64,000 nucleotides of DNA from Clostridia bacterium (GCA_017547885.1 JAFYOP010000001.1:1500-65499), one strand, 5' to 3'. Positions 3,611 to 64,000 are shown, numbered from the stretch's first letter. Made by a program: numbers and translations. Notes: generated by a model from the sequence alone, not told the origin.

Positions 3611-3645
3611 AAAGGGCTGTGGGAAACCACGGCCCTTTGATATTT
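3611..3645 (+). terminator. Intrinsic terminator after the FTR-like gene
   Basis: Stem GGGCTGTGG / CCACGGCCC with a GAAA loop, followed by TTTGATATTT. Confidence 0.7.
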
Positions 3646-3889
3646 ATCTAATCCCACCCACCACAGAACTAAAGTAATAGTGAATAGTGAAGGAGTATTT
3701 ATTATCTATACCCACCCGCCACCCTTTAAATGTATCTTCGCCTAATGGCGAAGACGGGGGAGGACGGATAAAGCTCCATTAACCGCGAATAACTCCATGG
3801 GGTGTAACCTATCCTGCCGATAGCACGTTTCGCTTCTCCCGCAGGGAGAAGCTTCCTTAAAGGGTGGAGGGTGGGTATAGATAATAAAT
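3641..3889. repeat. Family A quasi-palindromic element, copy A1 (extended variant)
   Basis: The order is a solo arm TATTTATCTAATCCCACCCACCACA, then a GTAATAGTGAATAGTGAAGGAGTATT module, then the full element 3697..3889. The element's arms are ATTTATTATCTATACCCACCCGCCACCCTTTAA and TTAAAGGGTGGAGGGTGGGTATAGATAATAAAT. Subterminal hairpins are TCTTCGCC-TAAT-GGCGAAGA and GCTTCTCCC-GCA-GGGAGAAGC. Confidence 0.85.
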
Positions 3890-3975: not shown

Positions 3976-4007
3976 ACAAAAAGCCCCATCCTTCATGGGG
4001 CTTTTTG
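3976..4007. terminator. Bidirectional intrinsic terminator (part of the C1 3'-UTR cassette)
   Basis: CAAAAA-AGCCCCAT-CCTTC-ATGGGGCT-TTTTT. An A-run lies upstream and a T-run downstream. A near-identical hairpin occurs at 35650..35679. Confidence 0.75.
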
Positions 4008-4051: not shown

Positions 4052-4122
4052 TTCGCTTTTCTTTCTCTTTTTGCTTCTTTTTCTTCTTTATTTTCGCGTC
4101 CGAAAAGAAAGAGAAAAAGAAG
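4052..4122 (+). repeat. Family C Py-Py-Pu triplex-type module, copy C1
   Basis: TTCGCTTTTCTTTCTCTTTTTGCTTCTTTTTCTTCTTTATTTTCGCGTCCGAAAAGAAAGAGAAAAAGAAG. Same tracts 1 and 3 as 35724..35794 and the reverse complement of 63642..63713. It starts 11 nt beyond the stop of minus-strand gene 4133..4783. Confidence 0.9.
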
Positions 4123-5593: not shown

Positions 5594-6664
5594 ATGAGCG
5601 AAATGTATTCAGCATCCGCGGCAAAAGGACTTGCCGCATATCAGCATAATAAGGACGCACTGCTCCTTGCCATAGAAAGCTCCTGTGACGAAACGGCGGC
5701 CTCTGTGCTGCGGGGGGACAGGGAAGTGCTCAGCATGAGCGTATATACCCAGATACCCCTCCATCGTAAGTTCGGCGGGGTGGTGCCGGAGCTTGCCTCA
5801 CGCAGCCACGTGGAAAAGATAGGGGAAGTGGTAAACTATGCCCTTGAGTCCGCAAAGGTCACCATAGACGACATATCCGCCATAGCCGTCACCTGCGGCC
5901 CCGGCCTTGTGGGGGCGCTGCTGGTGGGGGTAAGCTATGCAAAGGGCCTTGCCTTTGCCAAAGGGCTGCCCCTCATCGGCGTAAACCACCTTGCGGGGCA
6001 TATCGCTGCCAACTACCTTACATATCCCGACCTTAAGCCTCCCTTTATGTGCCTTGTGGCCTCCGGCGGGCACAGCCATATTATCAAGGTGGAGGATTAT
6101 CATAAATTCACTCTCCTTGGCCGCACCCGTGACGACGCGGCAGGTGAGGCCTTTGACAAGGTTGCAAGAGCACTGGGTCTGCCATACCCCGGCGGGCCGG
6201 AGCTTGAGAAGCTGGCCCGTGAGGGAGACCCAAACAAATACCCCTTCCACTCCGCGCTGAATCAAAGCATAGAGGAAAGCGACTTCAGCTTTTCCGGCAT
6301 AAAGACAGCGGTGGTAAACCTGCTGCACAATGCAGAGCAAAAGGGCGAAAGCCTGGATCCTGCGGACATTGCCGCGTCCTTCCAGCGGGCGGTGTGCGAT
6401 GCCCTTACAATGAAATCCGTACATGCCGCAAAGGCCCACGGCATGGACACCCTTGCCCTTGCGGGGGGAGTATCCGCCAACAAGGCCCTCCGGGGCGCAC
6501 TTGAGGCAGAGTGCAGGCGTCAGGGGGTGCGGTTCTGCTGTCCGGATTTCCGCTTCTGCACCGACAACGCCGCAATGATAGCCTGCGCCGGCCACTACGG
6601 CCTTATGGCGGGGCAGCTCAGCGGCCTTGAGCTGAATGCCGTGCCGAATCTGGCGCTGTGTTAG
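5594..6664 (+). CDS. tsaD: tRNA N6-adenosine threonylcarbamoyltransferase
   Basis: Track ORF 5237..6664, start set at ATG 5594. Motifs ESSCDETAASV, GVNHLAGH, SGGHSHI and FSFSGIKTAV are classic TsaD/Kae1. Confidence 0.95.
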   Translation: MSEMYSASAAKGLAAYQHNKDALLLAIESSCDETAASVLRGDREVLSMSVYTQIPLHRKFGGVVPELASRSHVEKIGEVVNYALESAKVTIDDISAIAVTCGPGLVGALLVGVSYAKGLAFAKGLPLIGVNHLAGHIAANYLTYPDLKPPFMCLVASGGHSHIIKVEDYHKFTLLGRTRDDAAGEAFDKVARALGLPYPGGPELEKLAREGDPNKYPFHSALNQSIEESDFSFSGIKTAVVNLLHNAEQKGESLDPADIAASFQRAVCDALTMKSVHAAKAHGMDTLALAGGVSANKALRGALEAECRRQGVRFCCPDFRFCTDNAAMIACAGHYGLMAGQLSGLELNAVPNLALC

Positions 6665-6672
6665 GGGGGAGT

Positions 6673-6730
6673 GTTCTTTTCTTTAAAAGAAAAGAACCAA
6701 AAGAAGCGTACTTTCCTTAAAGGAAAGTAC
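6673..6730 (-). repeat. Family D twin Py/Pu hairpin module, copy D1 (Py-Py-Pu sense on the minus strand)
   Basis: GTTCTTTTCTTTAAAAGAAAAGAAC-CAAAAGAAGC-GTACTTTCCTTAAAGGAAAGTAC, 8 nt after the tsaD stop. Same module as the reverse complement of 62243..62314. Confidence 0.9.
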
Positions 6731-6781
6731 CAAAGGATAAATAACATAATTAAAAAAGTTTGCACAGAAGTGCTGTCAATC

Positions 6782-6809
6782 AAAAAAGCCACTCACGAGC
6801 GGCTTTTTT
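6782..6809. terminator. Bidirectional intrinsic terminator between tsaD and the AI-2E transporter gene
   Basis: AAAAAAGCCACTC-ACGA-GCGGCTTTTTT, flanked by an A-run and a T-run. Confidence 0.75.
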
Positions 6810-6817
6810 GCATATAT

Positions 6818-6860
6818 AATACTTATTCACTATTCATTCTTCACTATTACTTATCTATAT
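6818..6860. repeat. Fragment of the family A flank module plus the start of an arm
   Basis: AATACTTATTCACTATTCATTCTTCACTATTAC-TTATCTATA. This is the reverse complement of the GTAATAGTGAA..GTATT module seen beside A1 and A5, joined to TTATCTATA. It overlaps the stop codon of 6855..8000. Confidence 0.6.
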
Positions 6861-10534: not shown

Positions 10535-10879
10535 GGGCGTTGCCCTTTCGCGAAAAACCATTTGGGTTTTCCGCGAGTATCCGCTGGGTTGGGGGCGGCC
10601 AAATGCTGCGCAAGTGGCCGAATACAATCCCTTTGGGGGATGCCGATTCCCTCTCGCGGCTGCGGCCGCTCCCGGGCGGGAATCGGGCAGCGGTATCCAT
10701 CCCTTGCGGGATGGTTCCGTTTTCGCCGCACATGTCGCCGAAAACGGATTGAAAGCTTTGGGCATGCTGCCGAATGCGGATTGAAAGCCTCGAAGGTCTA
10801 ATATCCTTCCGATAGCACGCCCTGTTTTTCCGCAAGGAAAAACATACCTTAAAAGGGTGGCGGGCGGGAATAGATAAAT
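10535..10879. repeat. Composite repeat A2: family B-like hairpin series fused to a family A right end
   Basis: The B-like part has TTCCCTCTCGCGG..CTCCCGGGCGGGAA, CCATCCC-TTGC-GGGATGG and CCGTTTTCGCCG-CACATGT-CGCCGAAAACGG. It ends with CCGATAGCACG, TGTTTTTCC-GCAA-GGAAAAACA and TTAAAAGGGTGGCGGGCGGGAATAGATAA. No left arm is present. Confidence 0.75.
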
Positions 10880-10964
10880 ATACCCAAACCTAACTTGCCT
10901 CAGTTGACAAAATTGCACCTGCGATTATGCGGGAGCAAAAATAAAGAACGGAAGTACACACCGT

Positions 10965-21892: not shown

Positions 21893-22034
21893 TGCAGGAT
21901 TTCCCTCTCGCCTTGCGGCTCCCGGGCGGGAAAGCCTGTAAAGAAAGAAAACCTTATGGTTTTCATCCGTTCTGACGCACATGTCGTCAGAGCCGGAATG
22001 AAAATCAAGGGGTGCGCCCCTTGATGATCCCGGA
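21893..22034. repeat. Family B structured intergenic repeat, copy B2
   Basis: Has TTTCCCTCTCGCC..CTCCCGGGCGGGAAA, then GAAAACC-TTAT-GGTTTTC, CATCCGTTCTGACG-CACATGT-CGTCAGAGCCGGAATG and ATCAAGGGG-TGCG-CCCCTTGAT, and closes with TCCCGGA. Confidence 0.75.
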
Positions 22035-22545: not shown

Positions 22546-22590
22546 GTGGGCCTCCTTTCTGCGGGTGCCTGTGGGGCAAGAGAAATGGCG

Positions 22591-22771
22591 TATTTATCTA
22601 TACCCACCCACCACCCTTTTAATGTGCTTTTTCCCTTACGGGAAAAAGGGCAGGGTTGTTCGCAAGCCCGTTCTGATATGCAATGATTTAGATGCGTGTC
22701 ATTGACAGCACCCTCGGCTTTTCCGCAGGAAAAGCTACATTAAAAGGGTGGCGGGCGGGATTAGATAATTA
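22591..22771. repeat. Family A quasi-palindromic element, copy A3
   Basis: Arms are TATTTATCTATACCCACCCACCACCCTTTTAATG and CATTAAAAGGGTGGCGGGCGGGATTAGATAATTA. Subterminal hairpins are CTTTTTCCC-TTAC-GGGAAAAAG and GCTTTTCC-GCA-GGAAAAGC. Confidence 0.9.
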
Positions 22772-22830
22772 TCCGTAAAACAACATCGATGACGTATACC
22801 ATGTACACGTCAGCGATTTATTTATGTGTG

Positions 22831-24539: not shown

Positions 24540-24568
24540 AAAAGCCGCTCAGCTGCCGAGCGGCTTTT
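24540..24568 (-). terminator. Intrinsic terminator of the DUF1015 gene
   Basis: AAAAGCCGCTC-AGCTGCC-GAGCGGCTTTT. Confidence 0.8.
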
Positions 24569-24595: not shown

Positions 24596-24632
24596 CGTTA
24601 TTCTTTGGTTCTTTTCTTTTAAAGAAAAGAAC
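24596..24632 (+). repeat. Family D module, single-hairpin variant D2
   Basis: ACGTTATTCTTTG-GTTCTTTTCTTTTAAAGAAAAGAAC, 6 nt beyond the stop of minus-strand gene 24639..25973. It equals D3 with the hairpin-b segment deleted. Confidence 0.85.
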
Positions 24633-24638
24633 GTATAA

Positions 24639-25973
24639 CTACTTAGTGATGCTCCTGCACTCCAGATAGTACCTCTTCTCGTGGGCTTCGCCCATGGAGA
24701 AGGTCTTGCGGGGCAGGGCGCCGTCGAAGATAACTGTGGGGAAGAAGGCGGCCTTATCCATGGAGGGGAGCAGGAAGCCCATGTTGCCTTCCTTGCTTCC
24801 AAGGTCGTTTACAACGTCCGCGCCGTGGATGTAGTCTATGGTCGCGCCCTCGGTCTCCTTGATGAGGATATCCAGGGCGTTCTGGAGGGTGCCTACTTCC
24901 AGCTGAGCAACAGGATTTTCAACATGCAGGCAGCCCACGCCTTCCTTGCTTACGAAGGGGATGATATGTCCGGCCTTGCCGGCGGTCTCAGCCTTGAGCT
25001 CTTCGAAGGAGGAGAAGGCGTGCACTTCGCAGGAACCGTTCTGCTCTATGAGCTTATTCTTTATCCATTCAAGGGCACCGTCTCCAACGTTGAAGATTAC
25101 GCGGTGGATGGGCTCGAAAATGATGCCTTCATCGTGAACGTTTTCCAGTTCAACCAGGCAGTAGCGGGCGGGATGCTCATCGGAGGCGGACAGGCCTTCC
25201 TCTGCCTTTACCCGCTCCCAGTTTGCCTTGGCGGTGGCGAAGGAATGGTTGCCGTCGCCCATGGCGAAGAGCAGGGGAGCCTGATCGGTTTCGTACTTGG
25301 CGGCGTAGGCGTCCTTTTCAATGAGGGCCTCAAGGGCAGCGATAACGCCCTTTACCTGAGCCTCGTCCTTTACAAGGTAGCCCTCGATGTGGCCGCCCTT
25401 CTGCATAAGGTCAAAGTCATAGAGCTTTTCGGTCTTATCAAGGGCTTCGCCGATGGGCTCGATAACGGTGCGGGCGGGGTCGTCTATCAGCACCAGTATG
25501 TGGGGCATCTCAAGGGGAGCGTCCTTGCGGATGCGCAGGCGGGGAGGTATGCGCTCCACAATGGTGCCTTCGGTGGCGCGGATAAGGGTGGTGGAACCCT
25601 TGGTATAGTCGTAATTTTCAAGGTCAAGGGCCACTATAAGGCCCTTGCGGGTGCGGCCCTCAACGGTGCGCAGAACGTAGGCAAAGCCCTCGCCCTTGTT
25701 TTCCAGTACGCCGTTTTCAACGTACTGCTTCATGTGGGAGTTTATGGAGACTATGCGCTCTGCCTCGTCGGGCTTGTCAAGGTAAAGCTCGGGCAGCATT
25801 ATGCGGAGGGTGGAGGGGGCGTCCCCAACTATGGACTCGGTCTCGTTCCAGTAATCCGGCTGGGAGGTATACTGGTCGCAGGCAACAACGGCCCACTTGG
25901 TCATGTCAACGGCGGAATTGGGCAGCAGCAGTTCGGGCACCTTAACGCCTATGGAGTTAGCATACTTAGTCAT
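24639..25973 (-). CDS. DUF1015 domain-containing protein
   Basis: 444-aa ORF after ACGGAGG. The N-terminal pattern LLLPNSAVDMTKWAVVACDQYTSQPDYW and the overall length match DUF1015 proteins as I recall them. Confidence 0.8.
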   Translation of the reverse strand: MTKYANSIGVKVPELLLPNSAVDMTKWAVVACDQYTSQPDYWNETESIVGDAPSTLRIMLPELYLDKPDEAERIVSINSHMKQYVENGVLENKGEGFAYVLRTVEGRTRKGLIVALDLENYDYTKGSTTLIRATEGTIVERIPPRLRIRKDAPLEMPHILVLIDDPARTVIEPIGEALDKTEKLYDFDLMQKGGHIEGYLVKDEAQVKGVIAALEALIEKDAYAAKYETDQAPLLFAMGDGNHSFATAKANWERVKAEEGLSASDEHPARYCLVELENVHDEGIIFEPIHRVIFNVGDGALEWIKNKLIEQNGSCEVHAFSSFEELKAETAGKAGHIIPFVSKEGVGCLHVENPVAQLEVGTLQNALDILIKETEGATIDYIHGADVVNDLGSKEGNMGFLLPSMDKAAFFPTVIFDGALPRKTFSMGEAHEKRYYLECRSITK

Positions 25974-31716: not shown

Positions 31717-31820
31717 GGGAATACCTTACCCACACAGGCAACACCGGCCTTTGGACAGAGCATCCCTTTTTCCCGCAGGGAAAAAGTACATTGAAGGGCG
31801 GTGGGAGGGAATAGATAATA
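31717..31820. repeat. Family A element, truncated copy A4 (right half plus a degenerate left arm)
   Basis: GGACAGAGCATCC, then CTTTTTCCC-GCA-GGGAAAAAG, then TACATTGAAGGGCGGTGGGAGGGAATAGATAATAAG. The left side has only a TACCTTACCCACACAGG remnant. Confidence 0.7.
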
Positions 31821-31830
31821 AGCCGCAAAT

Positions 31831-34664: not shown

Positions 34665-34916
34665 AAATTTATCTATACTCTGCCCGTAAATGAAGCTGCG
34701 GGTAATAATGAATGGTGAGAGAGTATTGATTATCTATTCCCACCCACCACCCTTTTAAGGTATCTTCGCCTGCCGGCGAAGACGGGACAGGTATGATAAA
34801 CCTCCGGCCTTTGCTAATAACCCAAAGGATAATGTACCGCATTATCGATGGAATGCTCGGCTTTTCCGTAGGAAAAGCTACATTAAAAGGGTGGCGGGTG
34901 GGATTAGATAATAATT
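34665..34916. repeat. Family A quasi-palindromic element, copy A5 (extended variant)
   Basis: The order is a solo arm start AATTTATCTATAC, then a GGTAATAATGAATGGTGAGAGAGTATT module, then the element. Its arms are GATTATCTATTCCCACCCACCACCCTTTTAAGG and CATTAAAAGGGTGGCGGGTGGGATTAGATAATAAT. Hairpins are TCTTCGCC-TGCC-GGCGAAGA and GCTTTTCC-GTA-GGAAAAGC. Confidence 0.85.
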
Positions 34917-35649: not shown

Positions 35650-35679
35650 AAAACGCCCCATCCTTCATGGGGCGTTTTT
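35650..35679. terminator. Bidirectional intrinsic terminator (part of the C2 3'-UTR cassette)
   Basis: AAAACGCCCCAT-CCTTC-ATGGGGCGTTTTT. Same hairpin as 3976..4007, with an A-T to C-G compensatory change at the stem base. Confidence 0.8.
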
Positions 35680-35723: not shown

Positions 35724-35794
35724 TTCGCTTTTCTTTCTCTTTTTGCTTCTTTTTCTGCTTTCTTTTCGCGTCCGAAAAGAAAGAGAAAAAGAAG
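35724..35794 (+). repeat. Family C Py-Py-Pu triplex-type module, copy C2
   Basis: TTCGCTTTTCTTTCTCTTTTTGCTTCTTTTTCTGCTTTCTTTTCGCGTCCGAAAAGAAAGAGAAAAAGAAG, 11 nt beyond the stop of minus-strand gene 35806..36750. Confidence 0.9.
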
Positions 35795-36753: not shown

Positions 36754-37902
36754 CTATACTCCAAACAGCTCCATAAGGGCGGATTCATTCAGCTTTGCGC
36801 CGATTACGCACAGCCTGCCGGTAACGCCTGCGCTGCCTTCGCGAACGTTTATCTCGCCGGGTACAAAGTCAAAGTGTATCCAGGCATTTTCGCCCTTCAG
36901 TATGCCCTTTGCCCTGAGTACCGCGCCGTACTTTTCCTCGTCCTCAAGGGCGGCAAGGGCAGCGGCGATACCTTCCGCAGAGAAGGCCTTGGCAGTTTCA
37001 ACGCCCCAGCTGGTGAATACTTCGTCAGCGTGATGATGGTGATGATGTCCGCACTCGCACTCGTGGTCATGCTCGTGATGATGGCCGCATTCGCACTCAT
37101 GGTCATGCTCGTGATGATGGCCGCATTCGCACTCGTGGTCATGCTCGTGATGATGGCCGCATTCGCACTCATGGTCGTGTTCGTGATGGCCGCACTCGCA
37201 CTCGTGGTCATGCTCGTGATGATGTCCGCACTCGCACTCGTGCTCGTGATGGTGGTGGTGATGATGCTCGCTTTCTGCCTTCAGGTGTGCAAGCTCCTCA
37301 TCAAGGGTGTCGCGGCGCTCCATGGCGGTGAGTATCTGTGCGCCGGTCAGCTCATCCCAGGGGGTAGTGATGAGGGTGGCATCGGCGTTGTGCTGACGGA
37401 TAAGCTCAACGGTGGCGGTGAGCTTGTCCTCGGATATGCCTGCGGTGCGGGAGAGGACTATGGAATTGGCGTGCTCTATCTGGTCGTTGAAGAATTCACC
37501 AAAGTTCTTCATGTACATCCTGCACTTGTTGGCGTCAACGATGGCGGTAAAGCTGTTGAGCTGCAGCTCCTCTGCTCCCACGTCCTGTACGGCGCGGATA
37601 ACGTCGCTGAGCTTGCCTACGCCGGAGGGCTCTATCAGTATACGGTCGGGGGAGTACTGCTCCAGCACCTTCTTGAGGGCCTCGCCAAAATCGCCCACCA
37701 GGCTGCAGCAGATGCAGCCGGAGTTCATTTCGGTAACCTCAATTCCGGCTTCCTCAAGGAAACCGCCGTCAATGCCTATTTCACCGAATTCGTTTTCTAT
37801 AAGTACCAGCTTTTCCCCGCCAAATGCCTCGGGGATGAGCTTCTTGATGAGAGTAGTCTTGCCTGCGCCCAGGAAGCCGGAAAAAATATCTACCTTTGTC
37901 AT
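36754..37902 (-). CDS. CobW/COG0523 family GTP-dependent metallochaperone with a long His/Cys repeat insert
   Basis: Track ORF 36754..38055, start set at ATG 37902 (MTKVDIFSGFLGAGKTT); ATG 37914 is an alternative. Has the CICCS motif (CxCC), the ILIEPSGVG switch and a CobW C-terminal domain. The insert is (HDHECECGHHHE)n. Confidence 0.85.
   Translation of the reverse strand: MTKVDIFSGFLGAGKTTLIKKLIPEAFGGEKLVLIENEFGEIGIDGGFLEEAGIEVTEMNSGCICCSLVGDFGEALKKVLEQYSPDRILIEPSGVGKLSDVIRAVQDVGAEELQLNSFTAIVDANKCRMYMKNFGEFFNDQIEHANSIVLSRTAGISEDKLTATVELIRQHNADATLITTPWDELTGAQILTAMERRDTLDEELAHLKAESEHHHHHHHEHECECGHHHEHDHECECGHHEHDHECECGHHHEHDHECECGHHHEHDHECECGHHHEHDHECECGHHHHHHADEVFTSWGVETAKAFSAEGIAAALAALEDEEKYGAVLRAKGILKGENAWIHFDFVPGEINVREGSAGVTGRLCVIGAKLNESALMELFGV
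37030..37268 (-). repeat. Coding tandem repeat, 36-bp unit x about 5.5, inside the COG0523 gene
   Basis: Units GCCGCATTCGCACTC(A/G)TGGTCATGCTCGTGATGATG begin at 37048, 37084, 37120, 37156 (33 bp) and 37189. They encode HHHEHDHECECG repeats flanked by His runs. Confidence 0.9.
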
Positions 37903-38113
37903 GGTTTGATGCATCTCTTTTCGTTGTATTTTGAGAAGGAAGACTGCAAAAGGCCATCCCTCCACAACTGTATTATAGTCAGACAGAAGCGGATATACAA
38001 GGGCACACGGGCATTTTCTTGCTATGTTCACAGGTAAGGAGGAATTTCGCCACAAATTATGAACAAATGCGTATTATAGGTGAACTGAATAAAAAATATG
38101 GTATAATAGGCCT

Positions 38114-45473: not shown

Positions 45474-45564
45474 GGAGAGATGGCTGAGTTGGTCGAAGGC
45501 GCACGACTGGAAATCGTGTAGTGCAGGAATGTACTCAAGGGTTCGAATCCCTTTCTCTCCGCCA
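45474..45564 (+). tRNA. tRNA-Ser (anticodon GGA), class II with a long variable arm, CCA encoded
   Basis: GGAGAGA acceptor pairs with TCTCTCC. The anticodon loop is CTGGAAA. The T-arm is AAGGGTTCGAATCCCTT, and the 3' end is GCCA. A possible promoter TTGCTT-17-TATTAT lies at 45387..45415. Confidence 0.9.
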
Positions 45565-60083: not shown

Positions 60084-60203
60084 CAAACAAAAGGGCAACC
60101 CGATTCACATACTCAAATGAGAATCAGCTTGCCCAGGCGGTCGGCTTATTGCGTACGGTTCCCTTGTGGTAAGCCACTTCCGCCAGTAGCCGTACGAGTA
60201 GTA
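60084..60203 (-). promoter_or_regulatory. ZTP (pfl motif) riboswitch with a terminator expression platform, upstream of purE
   Basis: The minus strand reads CGUACGG-CUACUGGCGGAAGUGGCUUACCACAAGGGAA-CCGUACG-CAAUAAG-CCGACCGCCUGGGCA. This contains the conserved ACUGGCGGA, GUGG/CCAC and CCGACCGCCUGGGCA pseudoknot blocks. The GGGCA overlaps the 5' arm of terminator GGGCAAGCUGAUUC..GAAUCGGGUUGCCC-UUUUGUUUG. Confidence 0.9.
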
Positions 60204-61704: not shown

Positions 61705-61967
61705 TGGGTAACCTCCTGTGAATGAATAATGTATAATTTATCTCCCCGAGCATGCATCGGGATACGATGCAGTCCGACAAAATTACGGACAAATCTTCAT
61801 TATACTACCACGGCAAGGGGGGATTCGCAACAATAAATTGAAGCTTTTTTATGGCATCAGCCCCTTAATTTACGCATGAATGACAGTACAAAATCCGATG
61901 GAAAAAATGGAATGGGAAGGGAGGGCAAACCTGTTGAAATAATAGAAAAAGACGGGCGGCAAAGGAG

Positions 61968-62153
61968 TAATTATCTATCCCCACCCGTCACCCTTTTAAT
62001 GTATATTCGCCTTACGGAGAAGAAAAAGGAGTATAAATTATATGTAAACCTGAAAAGCATGCACTGACATTATCCGGTGTCAGCGTAAGCTTATCCTTTT
62101 TTCCCGTAAGGGAAAAAGTACATTGAAGGGTGGAGGGAGGGAATAGATAATTA
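61968..62153. repeat. Family A quasi-palindromic element, copy A6
   Basis: Arms are TAATTATCTATCCCCACCCGTCACCCTTTTAATG and CATTGAAGGGTGGAGGGAGGGAATAGATAATTA. The right subterminal hairpin is CTTTTTTCCC-GTAA-GGGAAAAAG. Confidence 0.85.
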
Positions 62154-62179
62154 AAAAGCTCACTTTTTGCCAAAACCAC

Positions 62180-62208
62180 AAATTCGGCCTCCCATCGAGG
62201 CCGAATTT
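62180..62208 (-). terminator. Intrinsic terminator of serS
   Basis: AAATTCGGCCTC-CCATC-GAGGCCGAATTT. On the minus strand it is followed by TTTGTGGTTTTGG. Confidence 0.75.
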
Positions 62209-62242
62209 GGATAGCATATGTATGGTTTTTAATAGGTTATTT

Positions 62243-62314
62243 TACGCTATTCTTTGGTACTTTCTTTTAAAGAAAGTACGCTTCTTTTGGTTCTTTTCTT
62301 TTAAAGAAAAGAAC
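62243..62314 (+). repeat. Family D twin Py/Pu hairpin module, copy D3 (Py-Py-Pu sense on the plus strand)
   Basis: TACGCTATTCTTTG-GTACTTTCTTTTAAAGAAAGTAC-GCTTCTTTTG-GTTCTTTTCTTTTAAAGAAAAGAAC, ending 8 nt from the serS stop codon. Confidence 0.9.
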
Positions 62315-62322
62315 ATACAAAA

Positions 62323-63591
62323 CTACTTAATGTACTCACAGCCCATATACTTCACCAGCGCATCCGGCACCTTAACGGAGCCGTCGGGCTGCTGATAGTT
62401 TTCAAGGATAGCGGCAACGGTGCGGCCCACAGCCACGCCGGAGCCGTTGAGGGTGTGAACCAGCTCGGGCTTTGCGCCCTTTTCGCGGCGGAAGCGTATC
62501 TGGGCGCGGCGTGCCTGGAAGTCCTCAAAGTTGGAGCAGGAGCTTATTTCAACGTAGCGGTTGTAGCTGGGCATCCATACCTCGATATCGTAGGTTTTGG
62601 CGCTGGAGAAGCCCAGATCGCCGGTGGACAGGGTAACCACACGATAGGGAAGGCCAAGGCCCTGCAGCACACGCTCTGCGTCGGCGGTGAGGGACTCAAG
62701 CTCTGCGTAGGAATCCTCGGGCTTTGCAAACTTTACCAGCTCTACCTTGTTGAACTGATGCTGGCGGATAAGGCCGCGGGTGTCACGTCCTGCGCTGCCT
62801 GCCTCGCTGCGGAAGCATGCGCTGTATGCGCAGTACTTGATGGGCAGCATATCGCCGTCAACTATTTCGCCGCGAAGCATGTTGGTTACGGGTACCTCTG
62901 CGGTGGGGATGAGGAAGTAATCGGTATTGGTCACCTTGAAAGCATCCTCCTCAAACTTGGGCAGCTGACCGGTGCCTGTCATGGAGGCGCGGTTTACCAT
63001 GTAGGGAGGCAGAATCTCGGTGTAGCCGTTTTCGCTGTGGGTATCCAGGAAATAGCTGATGATAGCACGCTCCAGCCTTGCGCCAAGGCCGCGGTATACG
63101 GTAAAGCGTGCGCCGGTTATTTTGCCTGCGGTGGCAAAGTCCAGTATGTTCAGGCCTTCGCCGATGTCCCAGTGTGCCTTGGGCTCGAAATCAAAGGATG
63201 GCACTTCGCCCCAGCGGCGCATTTCAACGTTGTCCTGATCGTCTGCGCCTTCGGGTACGGATTCGTGGGGGATGTTGGGAATGGACAGCAGCATGCCGTT
63301 CATTTCCTCGTCCATGGCGGCAATCTGATCGTCCAGCTCCTTTATCTGAGCGCCGACCTTTTTCATTTCCGCCATCAGCTCGGTGGTGTCCTGACCTGCC
63401 TTCTTCATGGCAGGGACCTTGGCGGATTCTTCGTTGCGGCGGGCCTTGAGCTGCTCTGCCTCCTGCATGAGCTCACGGCGCTTTGCATCCATTTGGATAA
63501 GGCCGGATACGTCCGCGCCCTTGCTGCGGCGCTTTCTCATGGCCTCGGTCAGTGCTTCGGGGTTCTGGCGTATGCGTTTGATGTCCAGCAT
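62323..63591 (-). CDS. serS: Serine--tRNA ligase
   Basis: Track ORF 62323..63693, start set at ATG 63591 after AGGAGGAAAACAATA ([12 protein letters not shown]). Class II motifs [21 protein letters not shown] and GSGVAVGRT. Confidence 0.95.
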
Positions 63592-63641: not shown

Positions 63642-63713
63642 CTTCTTTTTCTCTTTCTTTTCGGACGCGAAAAGAAATGAGAAAAAGAAGCAAAAAGAGA
63701 AAGAAAAGCGAAA
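63642..63713 (-). repeat. Family C Py-Py-Pu triplex-type module, copy C3 (sense on the minus strand)
   Basis: The reverse complement reads TTCGCTTTTCTTTCTCTTTTTGCTTCTTTTTCTCATTTCTTTTCGCGTCCGAAAAGAAAGAGAAAAAGAAG. It lies between the stop of 63745.. and the serS start. Confidence 0.9.
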
Positions 63714-63744: not shown

Positions 63745-64000
63745 TTAGCTGATCTTTGAAAGCTCTGCGCCCATATCCGCAAAGAAGGCGGTAAGGGCTG
63801 CCTCGTCAGACCAGTCAACTTCATTATAGAGAAGGAACAGCCCAGATGCGGAAACCGCATTATCCTCGCCCGGGGTGAAGGTAATGGCGGCAGAAGGGCA
63901 GTTGTCGAATACGTAGAGATATATTACGCTTTCTGTCAGCGATTCGTCAACAAAGGTCTTTCCTGCGGCGCAGACGGCGGAGGCGGCCAAATTCTGCGCC
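63745..64000 (-). CDS. Hypothetical protein, C-terminal part (gene continues beyond the window end)
   Basis: The frame of track ORF 63745..63990 stays open to the window edge. No family recognised. Confidence 0.4.
   Translation of the reverse strand, partial: AQNLAASAVCAAGKTFVDESLTESVIYLYVFDNCPSAAITFTPGEDNAVSASGLFLLYNEVDWSDEAALTAFFADMGAELSKIS

Follow-up and report, generated by a model that had tools for sequence, protein, structure and literature searches.

The 64,000-nt stretch of Clostridia bacterium DNA analysed in this study (GCA_017547885.1, JAFYOP010000001.1:1500-65499; referred to as the window) contains three copies of a short module, D, and three copies of a long module, C, all of which are intergenic. 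The subject of this study is the twin D module next to tsaD, which consists of two hairpins, b and a, each preceded by a pyrimidine tract, and which may fold into intrastrand triple helices. The tsaD gene, the identity of which is confirmed by NCBIfam, has its stop codon at 6664 on the opposite strand, 8 nt from hairpin a. The minus strand from 6737 to 6673 reads TCCTTT-G-[GTAC TTTCCT tta AGGAAA GTAC]-GC-TTCTTTT-G-[GTTC TTTTCTT tta AAGAAAA GAAC]. Tract b (TCCTTT, 6737..6732) is the predicted Hoogsteen strand for hairpin b (GTACTTTCCTTTAAGGAAAGTAC, 6730..6708), from which it is separated by the spacer G at 6731. Hairpin b consists of the foot GTAC/GTAC, the pyrimidine arm TTTCCT, the loop TTA and the purine arm AGGAAA, and tract b is the mirror of the pyrimidine arm at 6/6 positions. 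This tract-arm pair is also present in three other loci of the copy set described below (L010, L134 and L139). Tract a (TTCTTTT, 6705..6699), which is separated from hairpin b by the dinucleotide GC, occupies a U-tract-like position directly after this hairpin and is the mirror of the pyrimidine arm TTTTCTT of hairpin a at 7/7 positions. Hairpin a (GTTCTTTTCTTTTAAAGAAAAGAAC, 6697..6673) has the foot GTTC/GAAC, the loop TTA and the purine arm AAGAAAA, and is preceded by the spacer G at 6698.

The sequence of the twin hairpins agrees with the first-pass annotation, but the span of 6673..6730 assigned to the module in that annotation is too short, because tract b at 6732..6737 is omitted. The proposed layout, in which a Hoogsteen pyrimidine strand is followed by a Watson-Crick pyrimidine strand and a purine strand, is supported. 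GGTAC and GGTTC are not the free 5-nt turns that they were taken for, because GTAC and GTTC pair with the 3' GTAC and GAAC, and only a single G is unpaired. The foot covaries on its own by Watson-Crick rules (GCAC..GTGC, GCCC..GGGC, CTTC..GAAG, GTCC..GGAC and TTTC..GAAA), with GCAC/GTGC found in L014 and GCCC/GGGC in L003. Shuffled windows contain zero matches to hairpin a or hairpin b. Both hairpins have fold z-scores of -5.2 (RNA) and -7.2 (DNA), and the tracts do not pair in the minimum-free-energy structures. The mirror scores of the opposite flanks of the window hairpins are 0/7, 0/6 and 4/7.

The second twin D module is located at 62250..62314 on the plus strand and ends about 8 nt from the stop codon of serS, which is encoded by the minus strand and is likewise confirmed by NCBIfam. 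Its tract b is TTCTTT (62250..62255) and its hairpin b is GTACTTTCTTTTAAAGAAAGTAC (62257..62279; pyrimidine arm TTTCTT, purine arm AAGAAA), while its tract a (TTCTTTT) and hairpin a (62282..62314) are identical to those of the tsaD copy. The two copies differ only at arm position 9 (C/T), its partner at position 15 (G/A) and tract position 2 (C/T). These three sites form one predicted triple, as expected from the earlier claim that the copies differ by a change between T*A-T and C+*G-C. This difference is a single comparison of two copies, represents at most one event and has little weight alone; the support for three-strand matching comes from the many variants in other genomes. The third D module (24601..24632, plus strand) has a single hairpin, a, preceded by the b-type tract TTCTTT. 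It appears to have arisen by deletion between the two TTCTTT(T)GG repeats of a twin, which would shift the triple register by 1 nt, and it scores 4/7 at the fixed register. The orthologous locus, L014, retains the twin. At this locus, the stop codon TAA of the orthologue of the window gene 24639..25973 is changed, by eye, to CAA. The frame appears to continue into the D module as far as a TAA within the loop of hairpin b, so that the module would be able to supply a stop codon.

The C modules represent the long form of the same plan. The C module at 4056..4122 (plus strand) consists of a 17-nt tract (CTTTTCTTTCTCTTTTT), a G, the foot CTTC, a bulged pyrimidine arm, the loop CGTC, a purine arm and GAAG. 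Its Watson-Crick pyrimidine arm contains a bulge and a mismatch, and its tract is parallel-complementary to the purine arm at 17/17 positions. The other copies are located at 35728..35794 (plus strand), with a bulged G in the pyrimidine arm, and at 63642..63708 (minus strand), with a bulged A. The 17/17 match between tract and purine arm and the 1-nt bulge in the Watson-Crick pyrimidine arm are found in every copy. The identity of the bulged nucleotide varies (T, G or A) and its site is roughly constant, not only in the window copies but also in L014, L134 and L139. The bulge could divide the triple helix into two parts, or it could result from selection against a long perfect palindrome. The claim that the D module shares the architecture of the 70-nt C module holds, since both have a tract, a G, a 4-bp foot, a mirrored arm, a loop and a purine arm. 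Judged by this common plan of tract, G, foot and mirrored arm, the C and D modules are one family.

The wider copy set consists of the window and at least 138 public loci from genomes and metagenomes, the metagenome part being the matches listed. Genomes were scanned with the pattern GGTTC Y6 TTTAA R6 GAAC and metagenomes with GGTTC Y5 N0-1 TTTAA N0-1 R5 GAAC, the tract being left free in both patterns. About 40 of the metagenome matches listed represent one coding-region coincidence without a tract. In the pyrimidine sense, the family unit consists of (A)AAG, tract X, G, a 4-bp foot, the mirror of X, a loop (TTCA, TTTA or TTA), a purine arm and the foot. The family is widespread, in uncultured Clostridia, other Bacillota and high-GC metagenome contigs, and an imperfect copy is present in Rhodovastum, an alphaproteobacterium. 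Viral contigs scanned with the twin-module pattern give no match.

A perfect mirror tract is present in 59 of the 67 distinct informative elements, namely those with an arm containing C in the window and among the matches listed. When the tracts are permuted among the elements, only 13.2 ± 2.9 perfect mirrors are obtained, the highest count in 5000 permutations being 24. At least 15 different arms, each with its own mirrored tract, and seven different feet are represented, and the GC content of the contigs ranges from 25 to 69%. The tract-arm pairs include TTTTCTC/CTCTTTT, TTCTCT/TCTCTT, TCTCTT/TTCTCT, TCTTTC/CTTTCT, TTTTTC/CTTTTT, CTTTTT/TTTTTC, TTTCTT/TTCTTT, TCTTTT/TTTTCT and TCCTTT/TTTCCT. 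Neighbouring modules on the same contigs, which were not selected by the search patterns, have the feet CTTC, GTAC, GCAC, GCCC, GTCC and TTTC and obey the same rule. When the elements are oriented by the loop alone and the tract is ignored, the mirror is found at one axis only (spacer 1, foot 4), in 54/99 elements, as compared with 0-9 at other registers; mirrors also occur on the equivalent shifted diagonal. In the wider set, most hairpins score 0-2 of 6 when their other flank is compared instead.

The pairs were counted for 21 distinct 31-nt elements, with six parallel contacts between the tract and the purine arm declared as pairs. The count is limited to this length class, because the MAFFT alignment of all 52 elements misplaced gaps. 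Double changes from T.A to C.G are found at all six tract positions. The double-change cells number 12 and 10, as compared with 3.0 ± 1.4 upon shuffling (0/500) and 0-4 in slid registers. Tabulation of the triple positions over a larger copy set, by which the first-pass annotation proposed to check its reading, thus gives double changes far in excess of both the shuffled and the slid controls.

These results bear on the possibility that the modules are plain hairpins, either similar to repetitive extragenic palindromic (REP) sequences or accessory to terminators, with the tract serving as a U- or A-tract and the mirror arising as a by-product of low-complexity or periodic T-rich sequence, for instance (CTTTT)n. 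Together with its tract, hairpin a comes close to (CTTTT)n, TTCTTTT also forms a direct repeat inside GTTCTTTTCTT, and many family members are homopolymeric T/A and uninformative for the mirror rule. Hairpin b with tract a also scores as terminator-like in the pyrimidine sense in a simple scan, while hairpin a has no U-tract in either sense. However, aperiodic arms (CTCTTTT, TCTCTT, CTTTCT and TTTCCT) and the 17-nt C tract follow the mirror rule and not the direct-repeat rule, the best direct-repeat register (21/80) is explained by self-mirror sequences, and neither the permutation nor the slid-register control reproduces the signal. The tracts are also strictly pyrimidine. The plain-hairpin explanation is largely refuted by these results and is improbable.

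The mirror could also belong to an RNA switch. The tract and the 5' arm would be competitors for the purine arm, and Watson-Crick pairing of the tract would give an alternative hairpin. Some arms, which are nearly self-mirror, do allow the tract to form 5-7 bp with loop-proximal or foot-proximal purines. However, the longest Watson-Crick run that the tract could alternatively form with the 3' half averages 5.68, as compared with 5.50 ± 0.06 for permuted tracts, indicating that it is an effect of composition. CTCTTTT, CTTTCT, CTTTTT, TTTCCT and TTCTTT show, by inspection, no such pairing and keep the mirror, and the main hairpin is far more stable than the alternative one. A switch of this kind is extremely unlikely.

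A mirror repeat would appear symmetric to a protein that reads the shape or minor-groove pattern of duplex DNA, in which A/T is distinguished from G/C only. Such a weak/strong code would account for a threefold repeat of the tract, pyrimidine arm and purine arm, and the modules are AT-rich and located near terminators, where nucleoid proteins often bind. However, a protein of this type should tolerate replacement of T by A and of C by G, while the tracts of mirror-obeying elements contain T and C only, never A or G. In addition, it does not need perfect hairpin complementarity or a covarying foot. A duplex-DNA site of this type is very unlikely. The mirror, or parallel-complement, relation has neither a copying mechanism nor a rationale in the twofold symmetry of proteins, and Hoogsteen pairing would be its natural physical reading. 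Constraint on the three strands is highly probable from the sequences compared, which show that they are kept matched either by selection or by the family's own mode of propagation.

We propose that the D/C unit is a potential intrastrand triple helix, which is dispersed as a REP-like intergenic family and is predicted to form a plug at gene ends. The probability of this reading is roughly 0.5. When the pyrimidine-sense strand is single stranded, the hairpin would form, and tract X would occupy its major groove, running parallel to the purine arm. The triples, of the T(U).A-T(U) and C+.G-C types, would number 6-7 in a D module and 17 in a C module. A single nucleotide, the spacer G, would cross the groove over the foot, as does loop 1 in an H-type pseudoknot; by this analogy, a 1-nt spacer over a 4-bp foot is as expected for a linker that crosses the deep groove. 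The structure would be a pyrimidine-motif triplex of the pyrimidine-sense strand. From general triplex chemistry, this motif, with mostly T.A-T triples, is probably the more plausible one given the A/T-richness of the modules. The modules are extremely AT-rich even in genomes with a GC content of 60-69%, which fits T.A-T triples that are independent of pH. Each tract would double as the U-tract of the preceding hairpin. The folding strand may be RNA, produced either by read-through of the upstream terminator or in co-directional spacers (for example, that before serS), or single-stranded DNA. As a tentative suggestion, a compact triple-helix plug located by terminators may resist nucleases and helicases, determine or protect the 3' ends of transcripts, and shield the neighbouring gene from read-through. 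A triplex on the non-template strand that acts as a roadblock inside RNA polymerase was considered and rejected on steric grounds.

The genomic setting of the modules is consistent in the window. In 3/3 D and 2/3 C modules, the order is gene A, a terminator, a spacer of 30-45 nt, the module in the pyrimidine sense and the stop codon of a convergent gene B. The terminators are truly bidirectional, with a symmetric A-tract, hairpin and T-tract. The one next to the tsaD copy (AAAAAAGCCGCTCGTGAGTGGCTTTTTT, 6786..6816) is located between a ytvI-like gene and the D module, and its equivalents are located at 24540..24568, 62179..62209, 3977..4007 and 35650..35678. The exception is the C module at 63708..63642, which, in the pyrimidine sense, is flanked by two co-directional genes of the minus strand, with the upstream stop codon near 63746 and the serS start codon near 63590, just upstream of the ribosome-binding site of serS. 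By eye, TTGACA-N19-TTTAAT upstream of the tsaD copy resembles a promoter from which pyrimidine-sense RNA could be produced on its own; this candidate was rejected, because a scan gives no consistent promoter at the three copies. The distribution of G.U and C.A mismatches likewise failed as a guide to the transcribed strand, because there are hardly any mismatches in the stems.

In 65/105 modules, the 8 nt upstream of the tract contain the end of a helix of at least 5 bp, as compared with 37-41/105 in controls. This enrichment is seen only by the stricter helix criterion, because the distance from the tract to the last paired base gives the same score at random positions. Many relatives have a GC-rich hairpin between two modules of inverted orientation, and the tract lies directly after this hairpin, like a U-tract. 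Such composite units, consisting of a purine-sense module, a GC-rich hairpin and a pyrimidine-sense module, are found in L007 (2545-2830, where the unit is tandemly duplicated), L064 (3310-3420), L024, L041, L065, L112 and L127. The tract does not, as a general rule, serve to extend the central hairpin by pairing with the purine tract of the opposite module, because the left and right tracts differ in L007 and L115 and each matches its own hairpin; the L007 tracts indicate that the relation within the module is the constrained one. In one clade (goat-rectum metagenome-assembled genome, Ga0228535), GGTTT(T)A follows every pyrimidine-sense hairpin.

The orthologous tsaD loci differ in their modules. 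The same twin D module follows the stop codon in L139 (100% TsaD identity). A twin is also present in L141 (95%), but its hairpin b is the other allele (TTCTTT / TTTCT / AGAAA) and its flank (..CAAAGAATAACG) resembles those of the other D copies of the window. L142 (90%) has a C-type module, in which both arms are shortened by 6 nt and the 17-nt tract is whole. In L143-L149 (86-75%), the module is absent and only ordinary terminators are present. The pattern in L141 suggests that dispersed copies have exchanged sequence, and not that three point mutations took place at tsaD. The compensatory change reported in the first-pass annotation is thus sound in that its positions form one triple, but not as three independent substitutions in place, because both alleles circulate in the clade. 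Judged by the fast turnover, the homogenisation within a genome and the arrays of one to three hairpins (L010), the family is REP-like in its behaviour. In L010, L012 and L017, the last hairpin is followed by additional incomplete copies of the 3' arm (AAAGAAAAGAAC), as in GAAC-AAGT-AAAGAAAAGAAC, which suggests slippage or recombination within the arrays.

Several observations weigh against the triple-helix plug. The rapid turnover at the tsaD locus and the identity of the copies within a genome fit a selfish repeat, and such behaviour means that covariation among the copies of one genome is not independent. Five of the six C and D modules lie 6-11 nt beyond the stop codon of the convergent gene, and at five of the six the mRNA of the nearest gene carries the purine sense, with the hairpin first and the purine tract after it. 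That strand cannot give an RNA triplex of the pyrimidine motif, and pyrimidine-sense RNA would be produced only when transcription from gene A reads through a strong bidirectional terminator. Six or seven triples with one or two C+ would be marginal at neutral pH. The stems contain no G.U pair and only one transversion among 49 distinct elements, and such nearly mismatch-free stems fit DNA at least as well as RNA. The mirror rule has exceptions: L012 has the tract TCTTTT with the arm TTTCCT, L015 has TTTTCCC with CTCTTTT, the window copy at 24601 is off by one in register, the proximal C is missing in L125 and L131, and the shortened arms beside an intact 17-nt tract in L142 are a counterexample to strict tracking of the three strands. 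Finally, the search patterns fixed GGTTC..GAAC, so that the generality of spacer and foot rests on the unselected neighbouring modules.

Some of these observations are those expected from the main alternative, a DNA-level element similar to the potential intrastrand triplex (PIT)/TMECO elements. Such an element would fold in single-stranded DNA during replication or transcription, as a class IV motif on one strand and a class II motif on the other, would stall polymerases and promote recombination, and would be semi-selfish, its structure driving its own spread or homogenisation without serving as a host RNA element. Besides the absence of G.U pairs with a single transversion and the identity of copies within a genome, it would account for the tandem hairpin number of 1 to 3, the deletion between tract repeats in the 24601 copy as compared with L014, and the events at the orthologous tsaD locus, where the allele is swapped, the module type is replaced and the module is lost at TsaD identities of 86% and below. 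For TMECO, triplex motifs have been linked to genomic instability (PMC4666352), with which this alternative also agrees. However, AT-rich purine-motif triplexes are weak according to general triplex chemistry, there is an association of the modules with hairpins and terminators, and their consistent placement at gene ends suggests a role at transcript ends. A purely DNA-level element is possible, but doubtful.

The triple-helix plug has also a narrower form, in which the modules represent a widespread, undescribed class of bacterial RNA triple helix, with the U-rich tract that follows a terminator or hairpin docking in the major groove of the next mirror-matched A.U hairpin through U.A-U and C+.G-C triples over a 4-bp foot. 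This form is rather unlikely. If correct, it would provide a nuclease-resistant 3' cap or a fail-safe terminator, a bacterial counterpart of the 3'-end triple helices of the element for nuclear expression (ENE) and MALAT1, and a new structural class for bacterial 3'-end biology, whose Hoogsteen pairs would already be defined by the covariation across Bacillota and high-GC metagenome contigs. The sequences give evolutionary evidence of third-strand constraint, because at least 15 arms from unrelated genomes share one fixed Hoogsteen register. The family thereby provides a tractable set of natural compensatory triple mutants with a defined geometry (1-nt spacer, 4-bp foot), either as RNA or as DNA.

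The other features of the window include a ZMP/ZTP riboswitch (60124-60200, minus strand, 53 bits) and tRNA-Ser(GGA) (45474-45564, plus strand), which are its only Rfam and ARAGORN features. Elements of about 190-200 nt with inverted-repeat ends of about 35 bp are located at 3692-3888, 22584-22772, 34720-34915 and 61961-62154, and solo ends of these elements at 3634-3675, 10822-10881 and 31763-31822. The repeat at one end is ATTATCTAT(A/C)CCCACCCNCCACCCTTTTAA and that at the opposite end TTAAAGGGTGGNGGGNGGGATAGATAAT. Each element has an internal pyrimidine/purine hairpin next to each end (for example, CTTTTTCCC GCA GGGAAAAAG), and the ends score as outward promoter-like sites (TTGAAG-17-GATAAT). 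These elements often adjoin C or D modules and look like miniature inverted-repeat transposable elements or structured RNA. Tandem heptad-like AATAGTG/TAGTGAA repeats (reverse complement TTCACTATTCACTATT) are present at 3676-3692 and 6823-6858 in the window and downstream of tsaD in L141 and L142, and adjoin G-rich inverted-repeat ends and terminators. A 91-nt intergenic repeat, for which no Rfam family is assigned, is found at 1844-1934 and 21922-22012 in copies that are 82% identical, with related pieces at 10727-10786; it terminates in the hairpin ATCAAGGGG..CCCCTTGAT. Seven in-frame tandem repeats of 33-36 nt (37007-37296) encode a His/Cys/Glu/Asp-rich stretch on the minus strand within the open reading frame 36754..38055. 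This frame adjoins a gene with a weak CobW match and a TIGR03943 permease-subunit match, and the locus is probably a metal-binding or metallochaperone one.

Among known systems, H-DNA is similar to the modules in that the tract and the pyrimidine arm form a one-strand mirror repeat with a 5-nt centre. It differs in that a mirror repeat suffices, and the additional inverted repeat, with a purine arm on the same strand, is not needed. Supercoil-driven extrusion of H-DNA takes roughly 15 bp or more per arm. The D arms, with 6-7 nt, are too short for this length, while the C arms, with 17 nt, are adequate.

The ENEs of PAN and MALAT1 and the loop 1/stem 2 triplexes of H-type pseudoknots (telomerase RNA and the SAM-II and preQ1-II riboswitches) have U.A-U and C+.G-C triples, with the third strand parallel to the purine strand, and a short linker across the deep groove, as proposed for the modules; the bulge of the C module recalls the reset of MALAT1. 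An ENE has a U-rich internal loop flanked by stems, which clamps an A-rich 3' tract. The architecture of the modules is different: they consist of a 5' U-rich tract and a simple pyrimidine/purine stem, and have no U-rich internal loop, A-rich 3' tail or second pseudoknot stem.

REP sequences and bacterial interspersed mosaic elements (BIMEs) are, like the modules, short extragenic palindromes at gene 3' ends, which are found alone or as small arrays, become homogenised within genomes and show rapid turnover. As REP sequences are by definition, the modules are imperfect extragenic palindromes of 20-40 nt that are present at gene ends in multiple copies, and arrays of 1-3 hairpins are found in relatives. 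By analogy, a role in the stability of mRNA 3' ends is likely. REP sequences differ in that they are not defined by a mirrored flanking tract, have a conserved 5' GTAG and are linked to the REP-associated tyrosine transposase RAYT (Y1 transposase). GTAG lies beside two of the window copies in gene sense (24633.. and 62315..), but not at tsaD or in most relatives.

Rfam gives no family at the gathering threshold for the module regions, only sub-threshold noise. A literature search by module sequence strings yields no matching paper in the library searched, and a search for triple helix and terminator yields general reviews and Holder et al. 2015 (Nucleic Acids Research, PMC4666352) only. Holder et al. 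describe four classes of intrastrand triplex, of which those of the pyrimidine type form in RNA and DNA, while the purine motif does not form in RNA. They derive the evidence for the G/C-rich motifs from abundance, conservation and in-vitro work on a single motif, and regard A/T motifs of 6-7 nt as mostly due to chance. The D modules fit the search definition of their catalogue of intrastrand triplex-forming (ITxF) motifs, which has stems of 6-15 nt, loops of 1-6 nt and at most one mismatch. The tract and arm match at 6/6 positions in hairpin b and 7/7 in hairpin a; the loops are the 5 nt between tract and arm (G and foot, 4/5 base paired) and the 3-nt hairpin loop; and the pyrimidine-sense strand falls in class IV and the other strand in class II.

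The PIT elements, also known as BoxC or TMECO (Hoyne and Maher 2000, as cited in Holder et al. 2015, PMC4666352), resemble the modules in having three consecutive blocks on one strand, namely a pyrimidine arm, a purine arm and a third block that mirrors the purine arm, and in being multi-copy and intergenic with a copy number that varies among close relatives. The TMECO consensus is CCCTCNCCC N3-6 GGGNGAGGG N3 GGGNGAGGG (PMC4666352). Neither the D nor the C modules match this TMECO/BoxC consensus, being A/T-rich and different in sequence. TMECO is G/C-rich, of the purine motif and reported in proteobacterial genomes, whereas the modules are capable of the pyrimidine motif, could therefore also form in RNA, have a base-paired 4-bp foot with a 1-nt spacer, lie beside terminators and are found in Clostridia, other Bacillota and high-GC metagenome contigs. 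In contrast to the view that A/T motifs of 6-7 nt are due to chance, the covariation shows that the D/C family is not. The closest described kind is thus the PIT/BoxC/TMECO class together with the ITxF catalogue, of which the D/C family is apparently an undescribed variant.

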